The translations under genes and the position numbers were made by a program. From a virus, in the UHGV virus genome UHGV-1840666: a DNA stretch of 14,588 nucleotides. One strand, 5' to 3'. Positions 1-14,588 of the stretch are shown here, piece after piece; positions within the stretch are counted from its first letter, which is position 1, and each line of letters opens with the position of its first letter. A model generated the notes under the pieces. That model was not told where the DNA came from, made no database searches, and saw only the letters and a list, made by a program, of their open reading frames with translations.

Positions 1-65
1 ACGGTATTTCCCGCGTGGTGTATGACATCAGCGGCAAGCCACCAGCAACTATTGAGTGGGAATGA
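1..65 (+). CDS. guaA: 3-prime end of upstream host-like gene, resembling the GMP synthase (GuaA) C-terminus; partial, continues left of window
   Basis: Frame 3 translates to ...GISRVVYDISGKPPATIEWE then TGA at 63-65. The ...PPATIEWE ending matches my recollection of enterobacterial GuaA; not verified. Confidence 0.45.
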   Translation, partial: GISRVVYDISGKPPATIEWE

Positions 66-113
66 TTAATAGCTAACTCATAGCAAATCATTTCTATTCA
101 GACACTAACTCAA

Positions 114-143
114 CCTCTGTTTTTACAGAGGGTTTTTGTTTTT
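114..143 (+). terminator. Rho-independent terminator after the guaA-like gene
   Basis: Stem CCTCTG (114-119) / CAGAGG (126-131), loop TTTTTA, followed by GTTTTTGTTTTT. Confidence 0.6.
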
Positions 144-256
144 ATGTATTCATTTCTATTCACTCTACACCATATTTTTCGGCGGTACAGGTGACGGTAT
201 TACCTTAAAGGTATACTCTCATACCGTCATGAAAATGGTTTCTATACGGGTGAATT

Positions 257-1506
257 GTGCTTACCGATACAAAATTAAAAAACCTCAAGCCGCAGGACAA
301 ACTGTACAAGGTCTCCGATCGTGACGGGCTGTATGTAGCTGTGCTTACGTCAGGCACGGTCTCGTTTCGCTACGACTACCGTATCAACGGTCGCCGCGAA
401 ACGCTGGTAATCGGGCAGTATGGGCGTGACGGTATCAGCCTGGCAGAAGCGCGAGAAGAACTGATTGCTGCAAAGAAGCTGCTTAAAGCAGGCCAGTCAC
501 CGGCTGCGGCTAAACGTGACGGTATCAAAAAGATTCGTGGTGCCGAGACGTTTGCGGTACATACCGACAGTTATATGAAACACGTCATCCTGGCTGACAG
601 TACCCGCGCAATGAAACAGGCGGTGATCGACCGTGACATACTTCCGGTTCTTGGCAATAAAATGATGGCTGAAATTACCACATCGATGGTTCGTGATTTG
701 TGTGACCGGATTGTCGAACGCGGTGGCCGGGCAACAGCAGTGCAGGCCAGGGAGATCATCAGTAGCGTATACCGTCACGCCAATGACCGTGGTCATGGTT
801 TGTTTAATCCTGCGGCTGACATTAAACCTTCGTCTATCGCCATATTTAAACCAAGAGAGCGAACACTGACACCAGAAGAAATTGGCCTGTTCTTCCGCAC
901 GCTGGATGCCATTGGTGCTATGGCACTATGAAAATGGCTTTAAAGCTGGTGCTTATCACTATGGTTCGTAAAGGCGAATTCACCAACGCAACGTGGGATG
1001 AAATAGATTTTAAAAAATGGACATGGACCATTCCTTCAGACCGCATGAAGGGAAGCCGGGCGCACGTTATTTACCTGCCTAAACAGGCTCAGGATATATT
1101 GGTCGGATTGCAGATGTGCGCTGGTGGAAGTGAATATCTGGTTCCTGGTCGTTACAATTTCCGGAAGCCATTATCTAATGCCGCGCTGAACTCTCTGATC
1201 GACAGAACGGTGAAAATAATAAATGAAGATGGTGAGCATATTCAGGGCTTCACCGTACACGATATGCGCCGTACAGCCAGTACATTGTTGCATGAGGCTG
1301 GTTATCCTTCAGACTGGATTGAAAAGGCTCTGGCACATGAGCAGAAAGGTGTGCGCGCCGTATATAACAAAGCGGAATACGCCAGACAGCGCGCCTACAT
1401 GTTGCAGCAGTGGGCCGATATGATTGATTCCTGGATTGACGGGGAGCATACGGATCTGATTCCGTTCTCCCCGTCGAAGTTTGAGAAGTGGATGGCGGGG
1501 GAATAA
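257..1506 (+). CDS. int: Tyrosine recombinase, P4-type phage integrase (N-terminal DUF4102-like arm-binding region plus C-terminal catalytic domain); split into two ORFs (257-931, 928-1506) by a frameshift near 925-935
   Basis: N-terminal ORF (GTG start) has LTDTKLKNLKP...YRINGRRETLVIGQYG typical of P4-like integrases. C-terminal ORF has VLITMVRKGEF...HDMRRTASTLL...YNKAEYARQ (R/H-x-x-R and Tyr region). Combined about 415 aa. Frame change 2 to 1 is consistent with a 1-bp deletion. Confidence 0.85.
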
Positions 1507-1509
1507 CGT

Positions 1510-1704
1510 TTAATTATTCTGCTGATTTTCTTCCATCTCGGCTTCTGCTGCCAGTGATTCAATTTTATCTGTGAATATTGCTGACAGTGTTGCAAATTCA
1601 GCATCAGTGACAGCGGGAATTGGAACAAACCTGATCCCGCTGTGTGCAAGCATGTTTGCAGTTTCAAGGCATTTCCTTAAATCTGCTGGTGATGCCCTGT
1701 TCAT
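1510..1704 (-). CDS. Small acidic hypothetical protein (about 64 aa), last gene of the leftward operon
   Basis: ATG at 1704-1702 overlaps the methyltransferase stop (ATGA coupling). Product MNRASPADLRKCLETANMLAHSGIRF...EAEMEENQQNN. Taken from the C-terminal part of the 1510-1824 track ORF. Confidence 0.35.
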   Translation of the reverse strand: MNRASPADLRKCLETANMLAHSGIRFVPIPAVTDAEFATLSAIFTDKIESLAAEAEMEENQQNN

Positions 1705-2347
1705 GCTGCACGCTCCCGCCCCTGGTTGTCTGTTGGTGACAGCGGAGCATTGCTGAATGCATTTGTTAATCCGGCAATATACAACGCGTATCCAGGGTGT
1801 AGTTGCACTGCTGGGTCTTCGCACTGATTACCCCAAACATCGAAGCCATGAGACGTTTGGCGGGCGAACAGTTCAATGCGAGAAACATCGCCTAACAATT
1901 GCACAAGTTTTTCACGAACGACATCTGGTTTTCTTGAATGCTCAAGCCGCGGTGCGGTAAATGACTGAACGATACCTGCATTAATGCGCGGAGGTAGTTT
2001 TCCCTTTACCGCAAACAGGCAATCTTCACTGTTGGCGCGAGTCATGTGTCCCATCCCCATAACCAGTTTATCTGGTTGTCGACTACCACATTTTATCCAC
2101 GTGAAGCCCTTCATGGTCATCAGACGAAATCCCCAGGCTTCAACAACTTTTAGTGCTTCGAGTGGTTGTGTTGGCACCCACCACATGGCCAACAGACAGT
2201 TTTCATCGGCCAAATCCCACACAGGAAGGCGGCAGATATCCAGCACACTCATAACCGGATATTTAAAACCGGCACCGCGATTACCATCTGCGGCTTTGTC
2301 CCGGTATACCCAGGTGGATCTGCATAGATTAGCGTGTATTTTTTCAT
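1701..2347 (-). CDS. MT-A70 family (phage Dam-like) DNA N6-adenine methyltransferase; frameshifted inside the DPPW catalytic motif near 2310-2314
   Basis: N-terminus MKKYTLIYADPP (frame of ORF 2249-2473) is followed, after a -1 shift, by WVYRDKAADGNRGAGFKYPVMSVLDI... continuing into the 183-aa ORF, which ends ...FDVWGNQ. The observed CCACCTGGG would read DPPW if it were CCACCCTGG. Confidence 0.8.
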
Positions 2348-2480
2348 TGTTCTGCTCCCAGACTTCCTTTGGTAAAGGCTTGTATCAGCCTGTTTGCTGC
2401 CGCTTTCTGTGCTGCTACATTGGCAATAACTGATAGTTTTTCCTGGCTTGCTTTCGTGCAGATCCCAACCCAATTATCCA

Positions 2481-3445
2481 TTAGGAAAAAATTCTCTCTT
2501 TCTGCGAATCAGTATTTGCACATAATGTTTCAATCATTGAAATTATTTCTTTTATTGAGTGATTAACCATCATTTGCTGAACAGCATAGCCAAAAGCGTT
2601 AATCATCACTGCATGAAACTGGATATATTCTCTTTTGTATTCTGATTGCTTTGTACCATGGCGAATTGCTTCTAGTTGTGTAAGACATAACCATGATTCC
2701 CATACTGACTCGATGTTACCAATTTCTAGTTTTTTCCCATTATGAATACAAAATTTTGATGTTGAATCACTTAATGCTTTGAAACTCACCCACATGTTTG
2801 ACTTTGACGGAACAACGTTGTGCTCGAAGTCAGTGACTTCTGCAAAAGTGTCATGTTGCGACAGGAAAGACACCATTTCTTGGGCAACATCGTTTCGTCC
2901 GTCATACGCCATATTAATTGCTGCAGATGGTTTTGAAACATTATTATTAATGTCAGAAAAGAACTGCTGACGCGCTTCAAAGGAAGGTTATGCGTAAGCA
3001 TAAGAGGAATCATAATTGTTTCGCCATAATTACGGCAGAACTCAGCTAATCCTGCAGCACGATGCTGTCCATCAAATAATTTTATTTCTGCATCCATAGG
3101 AAATCTAGCTAAACCGACATTAGTATTTCCAATCTCATGGAACTCTATTTCTGAGTTACAATTTCCGACCAATGGTGGAACAATAAATGGTTCCTTTTTC
3201 TCGTAAGCGTTGACTAAATATTGATAAAACTTTTTTACCCTGGTTGGATTAATTTCACGTTGAGAACGTTCAAGGGTACTTCCCGTATTGTCGGTTGCCA
3301 ATACTCTCGATAGTGCTCTTGCTGGTACTGTCATCATAAGTATTACAGTGCTTCCCTGCGTTCCTCGTGATGCGGGAAATTCAAAGAAATAATCGCCTAC
3401 CTTGCTCATGATATTACCTTTTACATTATTGTTTTGATTATTCAT
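2481..3445 (-). CDS. DGQHR-domain protein (DndB-like, ParB/Srx-fold); two overlapping ORFs joined by a 1-bp frameshift near 2979-2981
   Basis: N-terminal ORF contains ...IKLFDGQHRAAGLAEF..., the signature DGQHR motif. The downstream frame reads through as ...FEARQQFFSDINNNVSKPSAAINMAYDGRND... to the stop at 2481. Start could be ATG 3445 or ATG 3409 (MSKVGDYFFEF). Confidence 0.7.
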
Positions 3446-3737
3446 AAACCACCCCGCAACATCCTATGCCGCTATAGTCGCCACGGCGAAGGCCGTTACC
3501 TTTTGTGATACATTGGTCCCTGCGAACCGCGATCCTTGCACGTTCAACATCACCAGAAGCAACATCCATACACTGAAGCCAAAGGTGAGCGGCAATGCGG
3601 AATTGCCCTTTTTTCTCTCTTTCAATCGCGCGTTTTTCGATCTCTATCGCCGCAGGAGTAACGGCGACAATCTTTGACGGACTGCGCATTGAAACCTTAT
3701 TCATGTGATATTTTTCAAGTCGGCTTAACTTTCTCAC
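3438..3737 (-). CDS. Hypothetical protein (about 99 aa)
   Basis: ORF with GTG start at 3737 preceded by AGAGAGGG (RBS-like). Stop overlaps the start of the DGQHR gene. No recognisable family. Confidence 0.45.
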   Translation of the reverse strand: MRKLSRLEKYHMNKVSMRSPSKIVAVTPAAIEIEKRAIEREKKGQFRIAAHLWLQCMDVASGDVERARIAVRRDQCITKGNGLRRGDYSGIGCCGVVYE

Positions 3738-3850
3738 TTAATCCAACCCTCTCTGAAAATTAATGCCAGCAGATAAAGCCATGCTGAAACAGAGGCCAGG
3801 AATAAGTACCATCCTGACCATTTGCTCCAGTGCCTTAGCAGCACACTCAT
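3734..3850 (-). CDS. Small hydrophobic peptide (38 aa), putative single-pass membrane protein
   Basis: ATG 3850-3848 to TGA 3736-3734, product MSVLLRHWSKWSGWYLFLASVSAWLYLLALIFREGWIK with a 19-residue hydrophobic core. Stop overlaps the GTG start of the downstream gene (GTGA). Weak RBS. Confidence 0.3.
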   Translation of the reverse strand: MSVLLRHWSKWSGWYLFLASVSAWLYLLALIFREGWIK

Positions 3851-3937
3851 GCAGCGTTGCTCACAGGACGATATACACGTTGCTGAACAGGAGGCTTTTT
3901 ACCCTGGAACTCTGCCGGGCTTGCTGCCTGACGTTCA

Positions 3938-4096
3938 TCAACTCCACAGCTCAACTTCGTCACGGTTCCATGCGCAGCGTTTGTCAGTGATATACCAGCG
4001 TTTAGGAAATTCACCTGCGCGCTCCATACGGTCGATAGTGCTCCATGACAGTGGCACCACCGCCAGGAGTTCCTTCTTACCTAATGCACCTTTCAT
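3938..4096 (-). CDS. AlpA/excisionase-family small DNA-binding regulator (52 aa)
   Basis: ATG 4096-4094 preceded by AGAGAGG. Product MKGALGKKELLAVVPLSWSTIDRMERAGEFPKRWYITDKRCAWNRDEVELWS matches the AlpA-family winged-HTH pattern (..LS.STI.R....G.FP......W...EV..W). Below the 60-aa track cutoff. Confidence 0.5.
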   Translation of the reverse strand: MKGALGKKELLAVVPLSWSTIDRMERAGEFPKRWYITDKRCAWNRDEVELWS

Positions 4097-4145
4097 AAAT
4101 ACCTCTCTTGGTTGCAGTGCGGCGCGCGTGGCGCCGCGGTGGTGG

Positions 4146-5063
4146 TTACATAGATGTTTCGTTTAATTCTTCCCGACGAACGCTGTAAACGTCGGTGGCT
4201 TTTGCCAGCAGTTCGTCATCATCTGAAAGTTTTTGTGCAATGTATTTGTAAGCCTTATCCAGTTCGGAGACAGTGCTGTAATTCATCGCTGCGCTGGTAA
4301 AGGCCATCAGCATTTCTTCTGGATCACGGCTATCCGCTTTACGCGTTTGCTCATCAGGCTTTTTCACTGTTTTAGCGTTGATCAGACTGTTCATGCTGGA
4401 TGCTGTGCCGTGCTTTGCCTGACTTCTTGGAGTTACGTCACGTTCAATAATGTCAGGTGAGTCGATATATTTACCTTCCATTTCCTCAGCTGTGGCTTGT
4501 TGACCAATCTCCGGCCATGCTTTACGTAATGCCTGTGCCTCTGCGCATTTTGCCAACTGCGCATAAGGCGCTTTTTCCACATGGCATTTGGTGCCGATGT
4601 GTCACGCCCCCCAGTTGCATAGTTCTCAATCCAGTATTCTTTGGCGCTAAACTCTACGATTTCCCCGCTTGCCCATTCGCTTGCTGACGGTGTACTTACA
4701 CCACTGAGGGAAGGTAACCTCCACGCCTGAAAGCGTTTGTGTTACATCTGGACCGAACTCAGGTTCATTAGCGCCTGCGTAATCGCCGGAACGGTAGGCC
4801 TGAATGCGATAAAGTCCAATGCCAGGCATGACCACGTCGCGCCATTCATTCTTTCCACTCTTCGAGTCTTTAACACTCATTGGTACCAGGTGTACCGGCT
4901 TAAGAAGAGGATCGAGTTGACGCGCCCGGCAGTAATCGACTGCCATCATTACCGATTCATCTTTTGCCCCAGGGTAAATACTGTTTTTCAGAGCGCTCCA
5001 TGTAACTTCATCGATTCCCCGAATAGCCAACACATCATTGGTGATTGCAATTTCGTTGCTCAT
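4146..5063 (-). CDS. recT: RecT-family single-strand annealing recombinase; disrupted by two homopolymer frameshifts (near 4663-4666 and 4572-4576)
   Basis: ATG 5063-5061 overlaps the exonuclease stop (ATGA). N-terminal ORF ...DYCRARQLDPLLKPVHLVPM...GIGLYRIQAYRSG; the middle segment reads in another frame (...EIVEFSAKEYWIENYATGGRDTSAPNAMWKK); C-terminal ORF (V)EKAPYAQLAKCAEAQALRKAW... Placed next to a RecE-like exonuclease. Confidence 0.8.
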
Positions 5064-5881
5064 ACGTACATATCCTGTTTGCGTGCCCACTCAGGGCGTT
5101 TAATAATTTCCACGCCGCCCCATTCATCGCTGATGCGGCATTCGTGATAGGTATTCAGATCCCGGCGGAACAGAGCGTGCCCGGCATCGACATCCGGCGC
5201 ATCCAGCCCGAACACGCGTACCGGATACCGACCACAATCAATGCTTTCGCTCACGGCAAGAAAGAAAAAACCATGCGGCTGACCAGTAATCCTCATTGCG
5301 CCTTCGCGGTACATTGCGTCCTGCACGTGGTAGCGGAATTCCTCGATGTGACGTGCAAAACGGTCCATATCTGCAACCTTTTTCACGTCGACGATCACGT
5401 TGTGCTCGTTCAGCCATTTGTCTGGACGAATTCGGCACAACTCACCCGTCTCTTCATCGTTCCAGTACATTGATGCTTCGCAGTAACCAGGTGCTTCCAG
5501 CATCCAGCGTGCCGCCGGGTGAGCCATTGCGCTATCACGCATCAGCTCCAGTTTCCGCCACTGCTCGGCATCAAGTACCGTAATCCCCATATCCGCTACA
5601 TCACGAAGAAATGCTTCTTCGTCAGCTTTACCTTGTTTCGTCCGACGATCGAACTTCGGTGAAACAATGAAGCGTTTGTCGAATTCTCCAGGCTCCAGAA
5701 GCAGACAGTGCAATGCGGTTCCCATATCCAGTGCAGACTTTTTCTCTTCGTCTTCTGGTGCTGCCTGAACCCATTTAAGAAGCGCCGGATTCTTGGCAAC
5801 CATGTCCAGTTGCGACTTACTCACGCCGTCACCGGCGTGGTAGTCTTCGTTGCTGATGTCGAAATAAATTCCCGGTTTCAT
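5060..5881 (-). CDS. RecE-like PD-(D/E)XK exonuclease (exodeoxyribonuclease VIII-like), partner of RecT
   Basis: Intact 273-aa ORF MKPGIYFDISNEDYHAGDG...RIRPDKW...VIVDVKKVADMD...; directly upstream of, and translationally coupled to, recT. Confidence 0.75.
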   Translation of the reverse strand: MKPGIYFDISNEDYHAGDGVSKSQLDMVAKNPALLKWVQAAPEDEEKKSALDMGTALHCLLLEPGEFDKRFIVSPKFDRRTKQGKADEEAFLRDVADMGITVLDAEQWRKLELMRDSAMAHPAARWMLEAPGYCEASMYWNDEETGELCRIRPDKWLNEHNVIVDVKKVADMDRFARHIEEFRYHVQDAMYREGAMRITGQPHGFFFLAVSESIDCGRYPVRVFGLDAPDVDAGHALFRRDLNTYHECRISDEWGGVEIIKRPEWARKQDMYV

Positions 5882-6177
5882 GCCGCTTCCCTCTGCCCAT
5901 CAAGCTGATCCGCCAGATCCCAGCGCGCTATAATTGCCATTGCCTCGCGCCGGTAGGAATCCATCAGTTCTTCGAACTCAGGGCTGTCTTTAGCAGCCTC
6001 CAGCACTTCCTGACGAACGCCTTTGCCTGTTACAACGTCGAAAGTTGAGGACAGTTGATGAAGTCGGATGCTCTCAATCAGTTCAACTTGTCGGTCATAT
6101 AGCTGTTCTGACAGGCGGTAGTCCTTGTCGAATGCCAGCATGATTTTTTGAAGATTTTTCTGCTGATTAACGTTCAT
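5878..6177 (-). CDS. Hypothetical phage protein (about 99 aa)
   Basis: ORF with ATG at 6177 preceded by GGGAGGG (6190-6184); the track's earlier start at 6192 lacks an RBS. Stop overlaps the exonuclease ATG. Confidence 0.55.
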   Translation of the reverse strand: MNVNQQKNLQKIMLAFDKDYRLSEQLYDRQVELIESIRLHQLSSTFDVVTGKGVRQEVLEAAKDSPEFEELMDSYRREAMAIIARWDLADQLDGQREAA

Positions 6178-6179
6178 TA

Positions 6180-6332
6180 TCAGCCCTCCCATATCTCGTT
6201 ATCGTTGGCCACATCGCGAGCTTCTTTGCTGACGAAAGCCCACTTAATGCCTTCCTGTAAGGTGCGGAACTTCCAGCTCATGAATCCGCATGCAGTAACG
6301 CAGTACCAACCGTTGATGATTTTCCACTGCAT
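6180..6332 (-). CDS. Small hypothetical protein (50 aa), first gene of the leftward early operon
   Basis: ATG 6332-6330 just downstream of the leftward promoter/operator region, product MQWKIINGWYCVTACGFMSWKFRTLQEGIKWAFVSKEARDVANDNEIWEG; stop 3 nt before the next ATG. Confidence 0.35.
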   Translation of the reverse strand: MQWKIINGWYCVTACGFMSWKFRTLQEGIKWAFVSKEARDVANDNEIWEG

Positions 6333-6351
6333 AACTTGTTACCTCGGTCTG

Positions 6352-6428
6352 TTACCGTTGAGGTAATAATTATGCGTATTTGGTTTGATGTCAATAGATA
6401 TGAGTTAAAAAAATTACCCATAAGGTAA
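6352..6428 (-). promoter_or_regulatory. Leftward early (PL-like) promoter with two flanking operators
   Basis: Palindromes TTACCgttgaGGTAA (6352-6366) and TTACCcataaGGTAA (6414-6428) flank a perfect -35 TTGACA on the minus strand (6394-6389); AT-rich -10 region is ambiguous. An extra half-site TTACC lies at 6339-6343. Confidence 0.5.
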
Positions 6429-6440
6429 TCTTGTTGGCAA

Positions 6441-6463
6441 TAAAAAAGCCGCCATGAGGCGGC
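6441..6463 (-). terminator. Rho-independent terminator downstream of the repressor gene
   Basis: GCCGCC (6448-6453) / GGCGGC (6458-6463) stem with ATGA loop; on the minus strand the stem is followed by TTTTTT (complement of the A-run 6442-6447). Confidence 0.6.
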
Positions 6464-6485
6464 TTACTTACTGAAAACTATAGTT

Positions 6486-7069
6486 TTATTGTTTGCTTCT
6501 TTCGTTCTGGCTGATGACAAATTCAATGTAACTTTCGATCTTTGCCTTCTCTGTTTCGGGTAACAATGCGTAGCGCGAGCGGTCATAGTTGATAGTCGCA
6601 GGGTCGTGCGGGTGAATCAGTAATTCATAGCCGTGACGCCCGAATGCGGATGCAACATTCTCCAGGGTGGAAATGGAAACGCTGACTTCATTGTTTAACA
6701 GGCGGCTGATTGTCACCTGGCGACGCCGGATGCGCGGTGTAGTTTTCCCTGCGTTGAAAGGTCGCGGCTTTCGCTCATCCAGCGTTCCAGGTTGTGAGCC
6801 GCCAGCTGACCAATGTCGCTTGGGCCGACAGGCTGAAACCCCTCCTGAGAAAGCGAGCGATCGATATCAAGCCAGTTACGGGGTTTATTGGCGGCAGCTT
6901 CAATTTTTCGCGCAACCTGGTCGCCGATAACCTTCTTGCCAAGAGCCCAGCGGTTTACCAGATTTGCCTGAGTTCCAAGTTTTTCTGCCATCCGCGTCTG
7001 AACACCATTGAATTCACGGTCGATCAAGTCGTTGAGATTTTGCCTGCGGACGTCCTGGATACTTTTCAT
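6486..7069 (-). CDS. Phage immunity repressor with two tandem XRE-type HTH domains and no S24 peptidase domain; split by a 1-bp frameshift near 6714-6720
   Basis: N-terminal ORF ...GVQTRMAEKLGTQANLVNRWALGKKVIGDQVARKIEAAANKPRNWLD (HTH 1). After the shift the sequence reads ...LSTQGKLHRASGVAR-VTISRLLNNEVSVSISTLENVASAFG... (HTH 2). Sits between the two operator clusters, divergent from the Cro-like gene. Confidence 0.8.
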
Positions 7070-7124
7070 TTTCTGGAAAATCGCCTCATATATGAATCAG
7101 TAGATGATTCAATTTAAAGCAATA

Positions 7125-7187
7125 TTACCCAACAGGTAAATGCACCTCATAGGTAACTATCCTTGATTTTTGTTACCTTATGGGTGA
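7125..7187. promoter_or_regulatory. Tripartite operator region (OR-like) between the repressor and cro-like genes
   Basis: TTACCcaacaGGTAA (7125-7139), GCACCtcataGGTAA (7142-7156, imperfect), TTACCttatgGGTGA (7173-7187, imperfect); candidate -35 TTGATT at 7163-7168. Confidence 0.5.
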
Positions 7188-7223
7188 ATATTTATTATCT
7201 GAAATAAATATCAGGCAATAGCT

Positions 7224-7454
7224 ATGAGCGATAACGGACATTTCGATTTCAAAAAGCACTGGCTTGCACTTACTCCGGATGAGCGTGAAGCCTTCGCACA
7301 GGAAGCCGGAACGACGAGTCACTATATCCAGACTCACTTAACAGGTAAGCGCAAAATGCCAGGTAAAGTATTGATGAATGGGCTTTTTAAAGCCTGTAAA
7401 ACAAGACAATGGCTGCGCTCAAAAGCAGAACTGGCATACTTCTTCTACTCATGA
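7224..7454 (+). CDS. Cro/YdaS-like small HTH regulator (76 aa)
   Basis: First rightward gene after the operator region; ...TPDEREAFAQEAGTTSHYIQTHLTGKRKMPGKVLMNG... is HTH-like; followed by a terminator. Confidence 0.6.
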   Translation: MSDNGHFDFKKHWLALTPDEREAFAQEAGTTSHYIQTHLTGKRKMPGKVLMNGLFKACKTRQWLRSKAELAYFFYS

Positions 7455-7476
7455 TATCCAGCTACAACCCTCTGTA

Positions 7477-7498
7477 GACCGCCACCCGGCGGTCTTTT
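7477..7498 (+). terminator. Rho-independent terminator after the cro-like gene (tR1-like position)
   Basis: GACCGCC (7477-7483) / GGCGGTC (7488-7494) stem, ACCC loop, then TTTT. Confidence 0.6.
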
Positions 7499-7602
7499 CA
7501 TATCTATTCGTACCTCAAAGGTAATAAAAAACCAAATCTGGTTGATCAAATTTTCCAATTGTGCAAAATATCCAATATCAATAACAAAAAGAGGCGGAAA
7601 AA

Positions 7603-7815
7603 TTGAAGATAGTAACCAGAATGGAGGCCGCAAAAGCCGGGTTAAATCGCTATTTCACAGGAAAGCGGTGCCGTCACGGCCATCTCTCTGAAAGGTATGT
7701 TCTGAACGGAACATGTGTTGAATGTGCAATGAATAGCGCCAACCGCCATCGTAATGAATTTGCTTGTGCACTAAAGAGTGCAAGAGGGGAAACCTATGGC
7801 AAGCAGCTGGATTAA
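7603..7815 (+). CDS. Small Cys/His-rich hypothetical protein at the cII position (about 70 aa)
   Basis: TTG start with AGAGG RBS 8 nt upstream; product has C-x-H-G-H ... C-x-x-C spacing (KRCRHGHLSERYVLNGTCVECAM), suggesting a zinc ribbon. Function unknown. Confidence 0.45.
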   Translation: MKIVTRMEAAKAGLNRYFTGKRCRHGHLSERYVLNGTCVECAMNSANRHRNEFACALKSARGETYGKQLD

Positions 7816-8619
7816 GGTTGAAGTTATCACTCCTGATAAACCTGAAATTTTTCAGATAGCAGAAATTCTGGGTATTGATCCAGATGCTGTTCTTGGAAAG
7901 CTGGTTCGTATATGGGCATGGGCTGACCAGCAAACAATAGACGGTAACGCTGGCAGCGTTACAAAAGGAGTACTTGATAGACTCGCTTTTATTACAGGAT
8001 TTGCTGACGCCCTCATTAGCGTCGGATGGCTTGCTTATCATGACGGCAAACTAATTCTTCCAAACTTTGAGCGACACAATGGAGAATCATCGAAAAAACG
8101 TGCACTTACGAATAGAAGAGTGGCAGAGCATCGAAAACGAGTAACGCAAAAATAACGCCAACAGCGTTACAAAAGGAGTTACCAGAGGAAGAGGAAGATA
8201 TATATAAAACCCCACACATAGCGCACGTGCGCGAGGGTGCTCCGACCAGTGAAGCGAACGGTATGCCGTTGCAGGTGGCTGAACCTGAATTTCTGGATGG
8301 CCTGAGTGAACCCATCGGGAAATTTCCGATGACCGATGGCCGGCATCCGTCGCCGGATTTTCGACGGCGTGCTGCGCTGTGGGGAACGGCCCTGCCGGAA
8401 CCGGAATTTACACCTGCTGAACTTGCTGCATTCCGGGATTACTGGATGGCTGAGGGCAAAGTGTTCACGCAGGTTCAGTGGGAACAAAAATTCGCCAGGC
8501 ACGTAAATCATATCAGGGGAAAATCAAAAAACGCCGGGAAAAGCGATGAGCTTGACTGGAATAACACTGACTGGATAGAAGGGGTGTGGGATGAAATCAA
8601 CTCCAGAACTTCTCAATGA
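7796..8619 (+). CDS. Replication initiator: replisome-organizer N-terminal domain fused to a DnaT-like C-terminal domain; frameshift near 8134-8140
   Basis: ATG 7796 with AGAGGGGA RBS. N-part MASSWIKVEVITPDKPEIFQIAEILGID...VGWLAYHDGKL. After a -1 shift the frame reads NAKITPTALQKELPEEEEDIYK... and continues ...IGKFPMTDGRHPSPDFRRRAALWGTALPEPEFTPAELAAFRDYWMAEGKVFTQVQWEQKFARHV, closely resembling the E. coli DnaT C-terminus as recalled. Confidence 0.7.
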
Positions 8620-9366
8620 GTACGATCGCTTACGTGAGCATGGTGTTGCTGTGCATGAAGAGCGGCGTGACAGCAATGGCAAAAAGGAGCATGTCGCTAG
8701 AATTTTCAATGAACTATTTGTCCAGTTACAGGCTGCATTTCCCGCAAGCGTTTCGACCATAAGGGAGCAGAACAAACTTAATGAATTCCGTAAGCAATGG
8801 ATGCTTGCGTTTCTGGAGAATGGGATCACTACAATGGAACAGGTTAACGCTGGTATGCGCCACGCCCGCGCCAGTGAGTCTCCGTTCTGGCCGTCGCCAG
8901 GGCAATTCATCAAGTGGTGTAAAGACAGCAAGATGGTTCTTGGCGTCACCATTGACGATGTGATGGCAGAGTTTCACCGGTACAGCAAGGAAAAAAGTTT
9001 ATATCCTGGTGGTCCCGAAAGATTCCCGTGGCGGCACCCGGTTATGTACTGGGTCGTATGTGATACCCGCCGTGCAATGTATCAGCGCCAGCTTAGCGAG
9101 ATTGAGTTGAGAAACACGCGCGCAGGCTGCTCGATGATTGGGCGAAAAAGGTGGCTTCAGGACAGCAGATACCCGATCCGGTGATCAGCATACAGGCAAA
9201 GCCAGAACCCATGAGTACGCCTCCGGACACAGGGAGAGACGTTTACCATCCACCAGGGCGAAGTTTCGGGTGCATGCCTAACGCCGCCACCCTTGGGGGA
9301 ATAACACCGGCGCAGTGGCTGATGGAGGAATACAGGCGGGGAAAGGCGGCAGGATTTATCAAGTAA
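8591..9366 (+). CDS. Lambda P-like replication protein (DnaB helicase loader); frameshift near 9108-9116
   Basis: ...QWMLAFLENGITTMEQVNAGMRHARASESPFWPSPGQFIKWCKD... matches the conserved core of lambda P as recalled. The C-terminus continues in the adjacent frame (...RRLLDDWAKKVASGQQIPDPV...). Confidence 0.75.
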
Positions 9367-9371
9367 TACCA

Positions 9372-9391
9372 GCGCGATAGCGCATTTTTTT
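9372..9391 (+). terminator. Possible weak terminator after the P-like gene
   Basis: GCGC-gata-GCGC hairpin (9372-9383) followed by A then T7 (9385-9391); short stem. Confidence 0.3.
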
Positions 9392-9403
9392 ACGTCTCGA
9401 TAA

Positions 9404-9480
9404 TTACCTGTGAGGTAATAAAATATTCTAAACTCTATTGATTTCGTGTCTTATGTGGTTTTTAATTACCTCAGGGGTAA
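9404..9480 (+). promoter_or_regulatory. Second repressor-controlled promoter module driving the rightward accessory operon
   Basis: TTACCtgtgaGGTAA (9404-9418), -35 TTGATT (9438-9443), 17-bp spacer, -10 TTTAAT (9461-9466), TTACCtcaggGGTAA (9466-9480). Spacing is identical to the leftward module at 6352-6428. Confidence 0.5.
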
Positions 9481-9483
9481 ATT

Positions 9484-9827
9484 ATGAGAAAACAGATACA
9501 GGCTCTTGGTCGACTCAAAACAGGCAGATGAACAAAACAGAATCTGCGTATTGCCAGCACCTTGAGCTGCGTAAACGTGCAGGGGAAATCGCCTGGTATC
9601 GATTTGAGGGTATCAAGCTGCGATTAGCTGACAACACGTTCTATACGCCCGATTTTGCTGTGATGCTCGCCACCGGCGAGATGGAACTGCACGAAGTGAA
9701 AGGTTTCTGGACCGACGACGCCAGGGTGAAAACCAAAGTCGCCGCAGATCAGTATCCGTTCCGAATCATCGGGGTAACGGTTAAACCAAAGAAAGCAGGT
9801 GGTGGCTGGAACATCGAAGAGTTCTGA
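9484..9827 (+). CDS. Hypothetical phage protein with a GFW-DDA-V motif weakly reminiscent of RusA-type resolvases; N-terminus uncertain
   Basis: Main ORF from ATG 9528 (MNKTESAYCQHLELRKRAGEIAWYRFEGIKLRLADNTFYTPDF...GFWTDDARVKTKV...). A 15-codon ORF with a good RBS starts at 9484 and ends ATGA-overlapping 9528; this is either a coupled leader peptide or the real start displaced by a 1-bp deletion in the A-run at 9488-9492. Confidence 0.5.
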
Positions 9828-9888
9828 ATCGACGATCTTTTTAGTTATCAATGTAATCAATAAGTTATGTGGATAAGCGAGGGTAAAG

Positions 9889-10326
9889 ATGGAAAGTAAT
9901 ATCAAAGGGTTAGTTGCCGCCGGGCATGAGATGGCTTCGGAACTGAAAGCAGAATGTGGTGCCGTTGATATGCGCAGTGTGGCAAAGCTGATCAGCTATT
10001 TGGCAACGCAACTGGAAGTGCAACTGGTGCGTGCTAATGCGCTGGCTGCGGAGAATGCGCTGGCTCGTAAAGCAGTTCAGGCATTTTGCGATGTTGTTGG
10101 CGACAGCACCGAGGTTATCTGCGAGGAGATTGGGCGAGATGGCGTTCTGGTTATTTTGGAGGCAATGAAGGCAACAGGAAATATGCCAGCCACCGATGCT
10201 TTCCTGTCTGAAGTGCGGGCGCAGGGGGTAGAGATGATGCGCGAACATCCATCAATCAAACTTTGTTCTTTGACGCACATATGTGATGAGTTAGCCGCCC
10301 AGCTTCGCAAAGGAGGCAGCCAGTGA
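9889..10326 (+). CDS. Hypothetical phage protein (145 aa)
   Basis: ATG 9889 with GAGGGTAAAG RBS; intact ORF; stop overlaps the next start. Confidence 0.55.
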   Translation: MESNIKGLVAAGHEMASELKAECGAVDMRSVAKLISYLATQLEVQLVRANALAAENALARKAVQAFCDVVGDSTEVICEEIGRDGVLVILEAMKATGNMPATDAFLSEVRAQGVEMMREHPSIKLCSLTHICDELAAQLRKGGSQ

Positions 10327-10817
10327 GCGAAATTAATTACCAGGCATTGCGTGAGGCGGCAGAGAAAGCAACGTGGGGAGACTGGGACTCATATAAACCA
10401 CACCGTGGCGCACGTGGTTATGAGGTCCGACTAAGTAGTCAGGCCATTGCGCAACACGTTCTGAAAAACAACGCTGAATTTATTGCTGCCTTTAATCCAA
10501 AGGTTGCTTTGGCACTACTGGATGAACGGGAAAAAAACCAGCAATACATCAAACTCCGCGACCAGGAGAACGAGGATATTGCGCTAACGGTAGGGAAGCT
10601 GCGCGTTGAGCTTGAAGCAGAAAAACAGATGGCAAAGGTTCTATTTATGGAAAATGCTCGGCTTAAGTCAGGCATAGCCGGTCTGATACACCTCGGTATT
10701 CGATATGCAGATGTTGAGGTCATGAAAATTGCTGGAGATGCCCAGCTTTCTACTCCATGCACTGACAGCATCATAAACAGCATTGCAACAGGCATTCGCA
10801 TCAACGGAGGTGAGTAG
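10323..10817 (+). CDS. Ea22-like protein (lambda Ea22 family)
   Basis: MSEINYQALREAAEKA... and ...LLDEREKNQQYIKLRDQENEDIALTVGKLRVELEAEK... resemble lambda Ea22 as recalled; GTG start overlapping the upstream stop. Confidence 0.7.
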   Translation: MSEINYQALREAAEKATWGDWDSYKPHRGARGYEVRLSSQAIAQHVLKNNAEFIAAFNPKVALALLDEREKNQQYIKLRDQENEDIALTVGKLRVELEAEKQMAKVLFMENARLKSGIAGLIHLGIRYADVEVMKIAGDAQLSTPCTDSIINSIATGIRINGGE

Positions 10818-10993
10818 TGCGTGTGGCATGTATCGGCTTGTTACCGTACCCGACTCGTTTTTGGGCTTCTGCGCTAATTGCAAAGCCACATGTCCTGATG
10901 GCTGACAACATCATCCCGGCACCAAAGCGCCGCCATACCGGTATTGCAGCGGCACGACGAGCAGCAAAGAGACGCAGGAGAGCAAAGCGATGA
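10817..10993 (+). CDS. Possible small protein with Arg-rich C-terminus (58 aa)
   Basis: GTG 10817 overlapping the Ea22-like stop; ...HTGIAAARRAAKRRRRAKR; stop overlaps the next ATG. Could instead be a frameshifted extension of the Ea22-like gene. Confidence 0.25.
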   Translation: MRVACIGLLPYPTRFWASALIAKPHVLMADNIIPAPKRRHTGIAAARRAAKRRRRAKR

Positions 10994-11167
10994 AAAACCG
11001 TAAGGCAAAACGACTTTTTTTTACAGCGACCTGTGCGTGTGGTGGAGCTGGTTATTAGCAACCATAAGATAGCGGTACTCCATCCATTTGGTCAGGTGGC
11101 TTTTGCCGCAAAGCGTAAGCCTACTGCGTCACAGAACAGGCGGAAGAAAGGGTACGCTGTAAGATGA
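10990..11167 (+). CDS. Small basic hypothetical protein, paralog A (MKNRKAK...); frameshifted in a T8 run (11015-11022)
   Basis: ATG 10990. Read with T7 instead of T8 the ORF gives MKNRKAKRLFLQRPVRVVELVISNHKIAVLHPFGQVAFAAKRKPTASQNRRKKGYAVR, ending ATGA-overlapped with paralog B and resembling it at both ends. Confidence 0.3.
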
Positions 11168-11352
11168 AAAACCGTAAAGCAAAGATTCTGTTAGTTCGTA
11201 GAAACGCTCCTGGCGTCTGGCAGTGGGTGAGACTCAGCAACCGACGGATGGGGTTGATGAAATATTACGGGATGATGGATTGTGGTTTTTGCAAAAAGCC
11301 CAGCGCGGCGCAAAACCGCTGGAAAAACCACTTGCGCACTAAAGGAGAGTGA
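11164..11352 (+). CDS. Small basic hypothetical protein, paralog B (62 aa)
   Basis: Track ORF MKNRKAKILLVRRNAPGVWQWVRLSNRRMGLMKYYGMMDCGFCKKPSAAQNRWKNHLRTKGE; the first 20 nt nearly repeat the start of paralog A. Confidence 0.4.
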   Translation: MKNRKAKILLVRRNAPGVWQWVRLSNRRMGLMKYYGMMDCGFCKKPSAAQNRWKNHLRTKGE

Positions 11353-11353
11353 T

Positions 11354-11867
11354 ATGGCGTTAACACACCGCGAACTCTGTCAGATTGCGTATAAGTTCCT
11401 TAAGCGCAACGGGTTCAAGGTTTGTTTCATGACCGCTTTATAGCTGTAACCAGTACCGGAGAACAGCCAGATGCTATGGGATTCAGAAATTCAGCATCAT
11501 GCCTGATAGAGGCGAAGTGTTCTCGTGCTGACTTGTTGGCAGATAGAAAAAAGCGTTTTCGTAAAAATCCATCTCTTGGAATGGGCGACTGGCGATTCTT
11601 TATTAGTGAGCGGGAATTATTTCAGTTGAGGATTTACCACCTGGCTGGGGATTACTTCACGTTGTTAACGGAAGAGTACGGAAAGTACATGGGTGGCCCA
11701 AGGGTAATTGCTGTTGGGGTAATCCTGACGATAAGCCATTTACTGGAAATAAGCAGGTTGAATGCGATTACATGTTATCTGCATTAAGGCGCATGGAGTT
11801 GAGAGGGCACCTTAATGAAATATATGACGGTGTAATTGTTAATAAGAAAGAAGGAAACGCGGCATGA
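11354..11867 (+). CDS. PD-(D/E)XK-fold nuclease-like protein (Hjc/MmcB/VRR-NUC-like); two frameshifts (near 11425-11440 and 11600-11620)
   Basis: ATG 11354 with AAGGAG RBS. MALTHRELCQIAYKFLKRNGFKVCF...IAVTSTGEQPDAMGFRNSASCLIEAKCSRADL shows E...PD...E-x-K spacing. The frame returns to ...NPDDKPFTGNKQVECDYMLSALRRMELRGHLNEIYDGVIVNKKEGNAA with the stop overlapping the next ATG. Confidence 0.5.
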
Positions 11868-12642
11868 TCACTATTACCAATAAGAAACAGTATCCCAGCG
11901 AGCAATATCTTAATGAGCTGATCACCAACATAGAGTTTGCTGCAAGGGCACCAGTTGAAGTCGTGAGAGCAATGGCAGCAGAGCTACAGAAGCGGCGCGA
12001 AGCTGATAGCGCAGAACCAGTTGCTTATATTTTCAAACATCCGGCCGGGAAATTATTCTGGGCTTTAACGGATGAAAGTAATAAAGAGCAAGCGGACGTT
12101 ATTCCTGTTTATGCCGCCCCTCCAGTGCCAGTAGTACCTGAAGAAAAACCAATGCCTAACCCTCTTAAAATGTACGCGGTCGATGCTGTTGCCGCTATTG
12201 CAGAGGTGAGAGGCTGGAACGCTGCCGCGCCGCCATGCTTCAGGCCGAACCTGTAAGTAATAGTGATGAGTTACCGCTGGACTATCTGCAAGGACACAAA
12301 GACGGCCTGGAGTGGGCTGCACAATTGGCAGAAGCCAATCATCCGCAAACAGGTGACTGGTTGTACGACGACCCAATCGATCTTGCCAGGGCGATTCGCA
12401 AAGGTCCTGATATGCCTACTGTTCAGGCTGGCAACTATCCGGTAACTCCGGATGGTTGGATAAGCTGTAGTGAGCGAATGCCCGCTCAAGATGATTGGAT
12501 TTTAATTTATTCAAAGCACGGCGAGTATATGGCAGGACAGGTACAAGGGGAATACGTGGAGTTGAGCGACGGCACTTTATCGTGGTTAGGGAACGCCTTG
12601 TACTGGATGCCTCTACCGGAACCGCCGCAGGAGGTTAATTGA
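11864..12642 (+). CDS. DUF551-domain phage protein; frameshift near 12215-12235
   Basis: C-terminal part ...DGWISCSERMPAQDDWILIYSKHGEYMAGQVQGEYVELSDGTLSWLGNALYWMPLPEPP is a typical DUF551 signature; the N-terminal ORF from ATG 11864 (AAGGAA RBS) runs into it after a -1 shift. Confidence 0.65.
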
Positions 12643-12926
12643 TGGTCTCCTTCGCGAAATATACGATTATTGACTGGATAGCATTCATTCAGGTTTTGCT
12701 CATCTGGTTTTATATGGCTTACAGGAGTGGACAGTGGATTGTCAGTGTAGCCTGTAGCAATGGATGGCGTTGGTGGAACCGAAAGAATAAAAAAGCGCTG
12801 GCCTTGGCTTCGTTTTACGAAGCATTCAATCTTAACAGTCTTCAGCCTGGTTCTGTCGTTGTAGTCACCACTCAAAGCGGCATGACGATACAAATTCACA
12901 AGCCAAAGGAGGAAGGTCGTGGCTAA
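12642..12926 (+). CDS. Hypothetical protein with N-terminal transmembrane helix (94 aa)
   Basis: ATG 12642 overlapping the upstream stop (TGATG), AGGAGG RBS 9 nt upstream; hydrophobic segment IIDWIAFIQVLLIWFYMAY. Confidence 0.45.
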   Translation: MVSFAKYTIIDWIAFIQVLLIWFYMAYRSGQWIVSVACSNGWRWWNRKNKKALALASFYEAFNLNSLQPGSVVVVTTQSGMTIQIHKPKEEGRG

Positions 12927-13203
12927 CCTGCAACTTGCCGTTAAAGGTGAATACTTCGATGCCATGATTCGCGGAGAGAAAACGGAAGAGTATCGCCTGT
13001 GTAATGACTACTGGAATAAGCGAATTATGTTCCGCGAGTATGACCGCCTGATTATCACAAAGGGATATCCGAAGCGCGACGATTCCAGCCGCAGAATTGA
13101 CGTCCCGTATGACGGATATGAAATCAAGACAATCACACATCCGCACTTCGGCGATAAACCGGTAAAGGTGTTCGCGATAAAGGTGAATATCAGCAATGAA
13201 TAA
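12919..13203 (+). CDS. ASCH-domain-like protein (94 aa)
   Basis: GTG 12919 with GGAGGAAGG RBS; ...AVKGEYFDAMIRGEKTEEYR...YDRLIITKGY...KVFAIKV fits the ASCH/PUA-like pattern. Confidence 0.5.
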   Translation: MANLQLAVKGEYFDAMIRGEKTEEYRLCNDYWNKRIMFREYDRLIITKGYPKRDDSSRRIDVPYDGYEIKTITHPHFGDKPVKVFAIKVNISNE

Positions 13204-13237
13204 CAATCCTCGCACTCGCGGGGATTTCTTTTATCTG

Positions 13238-13262
13238 AACTCGCTACGGCGAGTTTTGTTTT
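13238..13262 (+). terminator. Rho-independent terminator after the ASCH-like gene
   Basis: AACTCGC (13238-13244) / GCGAGTT (13249-13255) stem, TACG loop, then TTTTGTTTT. Confidence 0.5.
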
Positions 13263-13275
13263 ATGGAGATGATAA

Positions 13276-13443
13276 ATGCACTTCCGGGTGACAGGTGAAT
13301 GGAATGGAGAACCATTCAACAGAGTTATCGAAGCGGAGAACATCAACGACTGCTATGACCACTGGATGCTGTGGGCGCAGATAGCGCATGCAGACGTAAC
13401 CAATATTCGAATTGAAGAACTGAAAGAACACCATGCCGCCTGA
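13276..13443 (+). CDS. Small hypothetical protein (55 aa), possibly the lambda orf55 equivalent
   Basis: ATG 13276 with GGAG RBS; MHFRVTGEWNGEPFNRVIEAENINDCYDHWMLWAQIAHADVTNIRIEELKEHHAA. Below the track cutoff; the orf55 link is from memory of lambda gene order only. Confidence 0.4.
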   Translation: MHFRVTGEWNGEPFNRVIEAENINDCYDHWMLWAQIAHADVTNIRIEELKEHHAA

Positions 13444-13456
13444 TGGCGGTTTTTTA
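13435..13456 (+). terminator. Rho-independent terminator overlapping the stop of the 55-aa ORF
   Basis: GCCGCC (13435-13440) / GGCGGT (13445-13450) stem, TGAT loop, then a T-run (13450-13455). Confidence 0.5.
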
Positions 13457-13469
13457 TTGGAGACAAGAA

Positions 13470-13814
13470 ATGTCAGATTTGGCTATGAAGGTTTTGAAAT
13501 GGCAATCGACTGGCGATGTCGGCATCAGTAGCGCAACTCTTGCCTCAATCGCATGTGGACTGAAAAAGAATATCTATGGTCATAGCTTCGGTGCTCCACA
13601 TGACGCAGCCGATTTCCGGCGATGCGTTGCACTTGTTGAGCAGATTCCAGAAATCAGAGATTCATTCGACAAGGTTGCAAAGCTCGTTCCGGCATTCAAA
13701 GGCATCCTCAACGAATGGGATTCCCTCGTTGCTCTGTTGAAGTCTGAAATGAAGATACACGGAAACAAAGCACCAGAGACTTACAGAAGAATTAGCGAAC
13801 TACGCAAGGACTAA
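13470..13814 (+). CDS. Hypothetical protein (114 aa) upstream of xis
   Basis: ATG 13470 with GGAG 7 nt upstream (the track start at 13443 lies inside the terminator loop); MSDLAMKVLKWQSTGDVGISSATLASIACGLKK... Confidence 0.5.
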   Translation: MSDLAMKVLKWQSTGDVGISSATLASIACGLKKNIYGHSFGAPHDAADFRRCVALVEQIPEIRDSFDKVAKLVPAFKGILNEWDSLVALLKSEMKIHGNKAPETYRRISELRKD

Positions 13815-13929
13815 CCATGGAATCACACAGCCTCAAACCCAATGAGGCCTGTTCATTTCTCAAGATATCCAGACCTACCATTGCCGCATCAATGCGGCTT
13901 TTCTTGCGTGTAATTGCGGAGACTTTGCG

Positions 13930-14148
13930 ATGTACTTGACACTTCAGGAGTGGAACGCACGCCAGCGACGCCCAAGAAGCCTTGAAACAGTTCGTCGATG
14001 GATACGCGAGTGCAGGATATTCCCTCCTCCGGTTAAGGATGGAAGAGAGTATCTGTTCCACGAATCAGCGGTAAAGGTTGACTTAAATCGACCAGTAACA
14101 GGTAGCCTTTTGAAGAGGATCAGAAATGGGAAGAAGGCGAAGTCATGA
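13930..14148 (+). CDS. xis: Excisionase Xis (lambda type)
   Basis: 72-aa product MYLTLQEWNARQRRPRSLETVRRWIRECRIFPPPVKDGREYLFHESAVKVDLNRPVTG.LLKRIRNGKKAKS is near-identical to lambda Xis as recalled; overlaps the int start. Confidence 0.9.
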   Translation: MYLTLQEWNARQRRPRSLETVRRWIRECRIFPPPVKDGREYLFHESAVKVDLNRPVTGSLLKRIRNGKKAKS

Positions 14149-14588
14149 GCGCCGGGATTTACCCCCTAATCTTTATATAAGAAACAATGGATATTACTGC
14201 TATAGGGACCCAAGGACGGGTAAAGAGTTTGGATTAGGCCGAGACAGGAGGATAGCAATCACTGAAGCAATACAGGCCAACATTGAGTTATTTTCAGGAC
14301 ACAAACACAAGCCTCTGACAGCGAGAATCAACAGTGATAATTCTGTTACGTTACATTCATGGCTTGATCGCTACGAAAAAATCCTCGCCAACAGAGGAAT
14401 CAAGCAGAAGACACTCATAAATTACATGAGCAAAATTAAAGCAATAAGGAGGGGTCTGCCTGATGCTCCACTTGAAGACATCACCACAAAAGAAATTGCG
14501 GCAATGCTCAATGGATACATAGACGAGGGCAAGGCGGCGTCAGCAAGTTAATCAGATCAACACTGAGCGATGCATTCCGAGGGAGGCA
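14126..14588 (+). CDS. int: Lambda-type integrase Int, N-terminal part (continues beyond window); 1-bp frameshift near 14545-14548
   Basis: MGRRRSHERRDLPPNLYIRNNGYYCYRDPRTGKEFGLGRDRRIAITEAIQANIELFSGHKHKPLTARINSD... matches the lambda Int N-terminus as recalled. The ORF stops at ...GKAASAS while the +1 frame continues KLIRSTLSDAF..., which is the known lambda continuation. Confidence 0.9.

Follow-up and report, generated by a model that had tools for sequence, protein, structure and literature searches.

Single-base frame changes along a low-coverage metagenome contig with a phiV10-like Escherichia coli prophage are very probably sequencing errors

Prophages of the phiV10/TL-2011b type (epsilon15-like, Uetakevirus) form a well-known group in Escherichia coli and lie directly downstream of guaA. 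True cryptic prophages, such as the defective lambdoid ones of E. coli K-12, show large deletions, insertion sequence (IS) insertions, nonsense and missense changes and lesions shared within a lineage, and their host neighbours are intact. Here we analyse UHGV virus genome UHGV-1840666, a stretch of 14,588 nucleotides (hereafter the window) that carries a guaA-associated prophage in which many genes change frame by a single base. It is like a cryptic prophage in that many phage genes appear disrupted, and none of the other hallmarks of such elements is seen. It resembles instead the homopolymer indel errors of the 454/Ion Torrent type in low-coverage assemblies, with which it shares single-base run-length errors, an excess of deletions over insertions and of indels over substitutions, a uniform spread over sequence classes, differences between assemblies and a very low coverage. 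The pattern is an artefact and not a biological feature: with a probability of roughly 95%, the frame changes are uncorrected base-calling or consensus errors in a contig of ~2.5x coverage, lying over an intact prophage and chromosome, and not mutations.

The window corresponds to bases 9527–24114 of the ENA metagenome contig ERZ504554:NODE_374_length_24114_cov_2.450494, contig end included. Positions prefixed by w are window positions, window base 1 being contig base 9527. The contig header gives a k-mer coverage of ~2.45 and indicates a SPAdes-style metagenome assembly. Upstream of the window, the same contig contains ~9.6 kilobases (kb) of host chromosome with guaA, guaB, xseA and an adhesin gene. 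Exact-sequence look-up of the frameshift-truncated integrase product (w257–931) returned two contigs only, namely the ENA contig and a 2.4-kb Logan contig from run DRR042503. The truncated products of P (197 aa) and RecT (144 aa) were found, among 153 billion indexed genes, in the ENA contig only.

The open reading frame (ORF) map of the window is unusually fragmented. Megablast against complete E. coli genomes and phages identified the element as a phiV10/TL-2011b-type prophage, and the best reference, NZ_CP126926.1 (locus L001, prophage at 1492222–1504023), matches w3–10328 at 99.84% identity with its genes annotated as intact. Identity to TL-2011b and phiV10 is 96.8% over the parts covered. 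The window and the phiV10/TL-2011b-like prophage of NZ_CP126926.1 share the insertion site downstream of guaA and the gene order int, DUF1382, MT-A70, DGQHR, PerC, helix-turn-helix (HTH) regulator, Bet/RecT, PD-(D/E)XK, two hypotheticals, repressor, two hypotheticals, DnaT-like, P, DUF1064 and one hypothetical. They differ by 12 private 1-bp indels in w3–10328. Apart from the indels, the element is an ordinary phiV10/TL-2011b-like prophage of E. coli, intact-looking and placed beside guaA. A tRNA scan of the window found none.

Base-by-base comparison with intact references revealed 17 single-base indels in the window, 14 deletions and 3 insertions (Table 1). Sixteen of them strike 14 genes, and the remaining one, at w113, is intergenic. 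All 17 are private, being absent from every one of the 4–9 references that cover each site, out of 15 references in all, including phages TL-2011b and phiV10. In tblastn searches with intact reference proteins, each affected protein resumes in another frame at ~100% identity. The lesions are 1-bp indels only, and the proteins are otherwise ~100% identical to their intact homologues. Relative to NZ_CP126926.1, the window shows 12 single-base gaps over 10.3 kb alongside 5 substitutions, three of which are clustered at w3942–3945. Closer references for the mosaic right part show 5 further indels (+T at w11015, −T at w11424, and −C at w11610, w12221 and w14543). The indels found among the references themselves are of another kind, comprising a 6-bp in-frame repeat unit, compensated pairs, a 10-bp intergenic indel and ~2 singleton frameshifts. 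Since indels outnumber substitutions to the nearest reference in this way, and only ~2 frame-breaking singletons occur across ~15 references, the indels in the window are far beyond chance.

A first-pass annotation, made from the letters of the window, had already described frame changes of one base in many genes, through both deletions and insertions, and this description stands. It had also reported recT as broken twice, in agreement with the two indels that we find in Bet/RecT, after w4566 and at w4672; the stretch of ~106 bases that separates them is read out of frame. Its statement that the lambda-type integrase continues in another frame as the known protein is borne out as well, as the frame two bases off the int start encodes, past w14543, KLIRSTLSDAFR, which is identical to residues 141–152 of the reference Int. 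Likewise, the T8 run that it had noted in a small paralog ('paralog A') is a T7 in all four references covering w11015. In contrast, the two breaks that it had placed in a PD-(D/E)XK nuclease are wrong, unless the DUF1064 protein, with its one indel, was meant: the nuclease gene is intact, with 273/273 residues identical to its homologue. Its gene list was also incomplete, lacking the small HTH gene, DUF1064, the deletions at w11424 and w11610 and the intergenic deletion at w113.

The host part of the contig shows the same kind of damage. Contig positions 1–9590 contain 18 private single-base indels, 17 deletions and 1 insertion, against 20–24 substitutions, with 10 of the indels in the adhesin gene, 3 in xseA, 2 in guaB and 3 in guaA. 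For this comparison we used two references of 99.6% identity (L021 and L022), both of which lack all 18 indels; they replaced APEC E19035, which was too divergent, with 66–70% identity in the adhesin gene. Indels occur at 1.88 per kb in the host part and at 1.17 per kb in the prophage, rates that do not differ significantly (p=0.17). Set against substitutions, the counts are 12 to 5 over the 10.3 kb of prophage and 18 to 20 over the 9.6 kb compared with the nearest host reference, and all are of 1 bp. The defect is therefore not specific to the prophage, because conserved genes of the adjoining chromosome are broken likewise.

When the missing bases are filled in, the host genes contain no internal stops, and their codon differences are overwhelmingly synonymous (synonymous/nonsynonymous: guaB 11/0, guaA 32/1, xseA 62/9). 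The repaired host genes are under strong purifying selection. As two or three frameshifts per gene occur alongside essentially no amino-acid change, the frameshifts in the host genes are not real.

The indels also carry a distinct signature. Over its 24.1 kb, the whole contig has 1.45 single-base indels per kb, 35 in all, of which 31 are deletions and 4 are insertions. G or C is the base lost in 29 of these 31 deletions (window, 13/14; host DNA, 16/17); among the first 22 deletions the count is 20 (p=5e-5). The deletion rate per run rises from 0.04% for single G or C bases to 0.36%, 4.7% and 6.5% for G/C runs of length 2, 3 and 4, while A/T runs are nearly untouched, with 0/324 changed at length 3 and 1/63 at length ≥5. 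Three-base runs in the context GCCC (GGGC on the other strand) are shortened in 11/112 cases, compared with 3/145 in other contexts (p=0.01). This dependence on context indicates a systematic base-calling artefact. In the window, the changed runs are GGG or CCC in 5 cases, GG or CC in 7, single bases in 3, a T4 in 1 and the T7 that became T8 in 1, the last being the only long run changed. The earlier annotation had placed the frame changes most often next to runs such as AAAA, GGG, CCC or T8. GGG, CCC and T8 are indeed among the affected runs, but no A-run is altered in length, most changes fall in short G/C runs, and the base lost after w8152 is a G beside an A5 run. The GCCC-context deletion of G/C runs could serve to flag similar artefacts and to fingerprint this data set.

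A second assembly is available for part of the window. The Logan contig from run DRR042503 (L008) spans w114–2508 (2.4 kb), the one contig on which the between-assembly comparison is made, and it shows zero substitutions relative to the window; the two contigs appear to come from the same sample. L008 has two of the window deletions (w921 and w2312), adds run-length deletions of its own (TTT to TT at w239 and CCCC to CCC at w1469) and has the reference-state G at w2508, where the window has a deletion. Of the five indel sites that fall in the overlap, three are seen in one assembly only. Furthermore, the first base of L008 lies within the C-run at w113, and its last is 1 nt past the w2508 site. 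This disagreement, together with the breaks of the contig at indel sites, is as expected if few reads differ on run lengths.

Five independent lines (source coverage, host genes, selection, the second assembly and the error signature) support the earlier judgement that sequence error is likelier here than pseudogenisation. At a depth of ~2–4 reads, a systematic under-calling of short G/C runs would persist into the consensus. The errors mostly remove a single G or C from runs of 1–4 bases, most often from a C-run after G (GCCC/GGGC). Runs DRR042402-403 are credited in PMC8563208 to Nishijima 2016, a gut metagenome study of healthy Japanese, for which 454 GS FLX, Ion PGM/Proton and MiSeq were the platforms (PMC4833420). 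Judging from its accession range, DRR042503 is probably from the same run series, and flow-chemistry reads (454 or Ion Torrent) probably lie behind the contig, a platform that we infer from the neighbouring run accessions.

Several points weigh against an explanation by sequencing error. The near-exclusive G/C bias is unlike the textbook 454/Ion Torrent profile, which affects long A/T runs too, whereas here the errors concentrate in short G/C runs and in the GCCC/GGGC context and long A/T runs are largely correct. The same-sample origin of both assemblies rests on sequence identity, not on metadata, and per-read disagreement at each site is deduced from the two assemblies. The deletions at w921 and w2312, present in both assemblies, could reflect shared reads or a systematic error, but also a real allele. 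Finally, the change from T7 to T8 lies at a classic site of natural slippage and could be real.

In a mixed case, nearly all indels would be errors and a real allele would lie behind one or two of them, the candidates being the T7-to-T8 change at w11015 and the deletions at w11424, w921 and w2312. This possibility, which overlaps with the explanation we favour, is unlikely, at perhaps one chance in ten. T7 tracts are established hot spots of natural slippage, the 179-bp ORF hit at w11424 is under little constraint and is annotated as frameshifted in complete genomes, and w921 and w2312 recur in both assemblies. However, all four candidates are absent from every reference, the overall rate is that of the errors in host genes, and w921 and w2312 also carry the same GGG-to-GG signature; their presence in both assemblies is expected if these were built from the same few reads.

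If the E. coli lineage were host-restricted or a mutator deficient in mismatch repair, slippage at short homopolymers could have built up a real genome-wide load of frameshifts. This reading would account for an even distribution of the indels between host and prophage and for their enrichment in mononucleotide runs, as with replication slippage. We regard it as very improbable. A mutator should also show many transitions, yet guaB and guaA have 0 and 1 nonsynonymous differences beside 2–3 frameshifts per gene. Replication slippage strikes long A/T tracts hardest, at a rate that climbs steeply with run length, whereas the 63 A/T runs of at least 5 bases show one change and the 3-base G/C runs ~5%. 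A technical origin is indicated by the GCCC bias and by the indel sites on which the assemblies disagree, at a coverage of just 2.45. Equally improbable is a genuinely decaying cryptic prophage with real inactivating frameshifts after loss of selection: many prophage genes are disrupted, and complete genomes do hold occasional real pseudogenes in this region (the 179-bp coding sequence marked 'frameshifted', and partial DUF551 and Ea22 genes), but this alternative is untenable because the host genes guaB, guaA and xseA carry the identical kind of lesion, at an equal or higher rate in conserved host genes, and it is at odds with the lack of missense or nonsense decay and of larger deletions at ~100% protein identity outside the frame changes, with indels that exceed substitutions to the closest relative and are common to none of the 15 references, and with two assemblies that disagree at indel sites. 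Programmed frameshifting was discarded as a reading, as no homologue shows the changes and they are found in guaBA too.

The result is of value for quality control alone: gene calls, pseudogene counts and any claim of a defective prophage based on this contig would be wrong, as is probably true of other low-coverage contigs of the ERZ504554 assembly. Public collections already list truncated proteins from the contig as unique.

The right end of the contig raises a separate question, as the prophage type switches there. Left of ~w10330, the window matches phiV10-like guaA prophages only, and right of w13190 it matches only lambdoid prophages integrated at ybhC, at 98–100% identity. The switch lies within a 2.9-kb accessory module common to both groups. 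After ASCH, all phiV10-like references continue with terminase genes, whereas the window has a lambdoid xis–int module in place of the terminase and late genes. By megablast, no single location in a complete E. coli genome accounts for ≥80% of the window, and the combination is unmatched. An exact look-up of the ASCH protein found the allele to be widespread in lambdoid pL operons and is uninformative on the junction. In the b-number order of the K-12 map, xseA–guaB–guaA and ybhC–ybhJ both descend here, which places the two loci in direct orientation; if the chromosome were truly recombinant, ~1.8 Mb would be missing from it. Because there is no such complete genome, because of this loss and because the module is a shared repeat, the junction is probably an assembly chimera across the repeat module at 2.45x coverage, and as such the lack of late genes says nothing about the real prophage.

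It is doubtful that the junction is instead a natural recombinant, in which a Uetakevirus-type early region is joined via Ea22, DUF551, DUF4752 and ASCH to lambdoid xis–int, perhaps with one or two run-length changes (e.g., T7 to T8) as real slippage alleles too. If real, the element would carry two different integrases.

Table 1. Features of the window and their single-base changes, in window coordinates unless a locus is named.
Feature and change	Coordinates	Strand	Evidence
guaA 3' end (host)	1–65	+	Annotation of loci L001 and L009
Intergenic deletion between guaA and int, CCC to CC (after w113)	113–114	.	Absent from 8/8 references
P4-type integrase, deletion after w921 (GGG to GG)	257–1506	+	Reference comparison, tblastn; same deletion in Logan contig L008
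MT-A70 methyltransferase, deletion after w2312 (GGG to GG)	1701–2347	-	Absent from 8/8 references; also in L008
DGQHR (DndB-like), two deletions, after w2508 (single G) and after w2974 (CC to C)	2344–3409	-	Reference comparison, tblastn
Small AlpA-like HTH regulator, inserted A at w3948	3847–4096	-	7/7 references disagree; tblastn aligns residues 52–82 only
Bet/RecT recombinase, deletion after w4566 (GGG to GG) and insertion at w4672 (CC to CCC)	4146–5063	-	5/5 references
PD-(D/E)XK (DUF3799, RecE-like) nuclease, intact	5060–5881	-	273/273 residues identical to WP_023145215.1
HTH repressor, deletion after w6718 (GGG to GG)	6486–7069	-	Absent from 8/8 references; tblastn
DnaT-like replication initiator, single G deleted after w8152 beside A5 run	7796–8619	+	7/7 references; tblastn
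Replication protein P, deletion after w9105 (GG to G)	8591–9366	+	Reference comparison, tblastn
DUF1064 protein, deletion after w9524 (CC to C)	9484–9827	+	9/9 references; tblastn
Accessory module: Ea22, small paralogs, DUF551, DUF4752, ASCH	10330–13190	+	Common to phiV10-like and lambdoid prophages; switch within
Small 58-aa paralog ('paralog A'), inserted T at w11015 (T7 to T8)	10990–11167	+	T7 in 4/4 references; intact coding sequence in L005 at 3511–3687
179-bp hypothetical, additional deletion after w11424 (TTTT to TTT)	11354–11531	+	7/7 references; tblastn
179-bp 'frameshifted' ORF elsewhere	L002 14010–14188, L005 3874–4052, L010 3554–3732, L011 2344–2522, L012 3344–3522, L016 11857–12035, L018 10252–10430		Prokaryotic Genome Annotation Pipeline (PGAP) annotation
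110-aa hypothetical, deletion after w11610 (CC to C)	11536–11867	+	7/7 references; tblastn
DUF551 protein, deletion after w12221 (CC to C)	11864–12642	+	5/5 references; intact 266-aa homologue in L003
Two hypotheticals, xis (w13930–14148) and lambda-type int (from w14126)	right of w13190		pL-operon end of lambdoid prophages
Lambda-type integrase, runs off contig end; deletion after w14543 (CC to C)	14126–14588	+	4/4 references

Two places in the window differ from the references in another manner. In the small HTH gene, three substitutions (w3942, w3943 and w3945) and the inserted A fall within the 7 bases of w3942–3948, a cluster that looks like a locally garbled read and not a run-length error. 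The final 7 bases of the contig (w14582–14588) are unlike all references, reading GAGGGAGGCA where these have GAGAGGCA (extra GG), which is typical of the noise at contig ends.

The 179-bp ORF is annotated as 'frameshifted' by PGAP in at least 7 independent complete genomes. This is apparently a conserved, real disruption of the frame, or else a mis-modelled or recoded small gene, and it is separate from the T missing from the window at w11424. That this deletion repairs the ORF is ruled out by length, as neither 179 bp (reference) nor 178 bp (window) is a multiple of 3.

At w8183, in the DnaT-like gene, 5 of 7 references have an additional in-frame AGAGGA repeat unit, a natural polymorphism in repeat number that is unlike the 1-bp errors. 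The MT-A70 and DGQHR (DndB-like) pair (w1701–3409) represents a variable cargo module of the guaA prophages. The DGQHR gene is present in L001, L002, L015 and L016 and absent from TL-2011b, phiV10, L017 and L018, where MT-A70 abuts PerC.

In phiV10 (NC_007804.2, L014), the annotated 'RecE-RecT fusion' PhiV10p37 (3303–5063) coincides with one extra T, at a position equivalent to ~w5077. This T, near the 3' end of the PD-(D/E)XK gene, is found in phiV10 alone among 8 references. The fusion may itself be the product of a one-base indel, either an error in the record or a strain-specific change.

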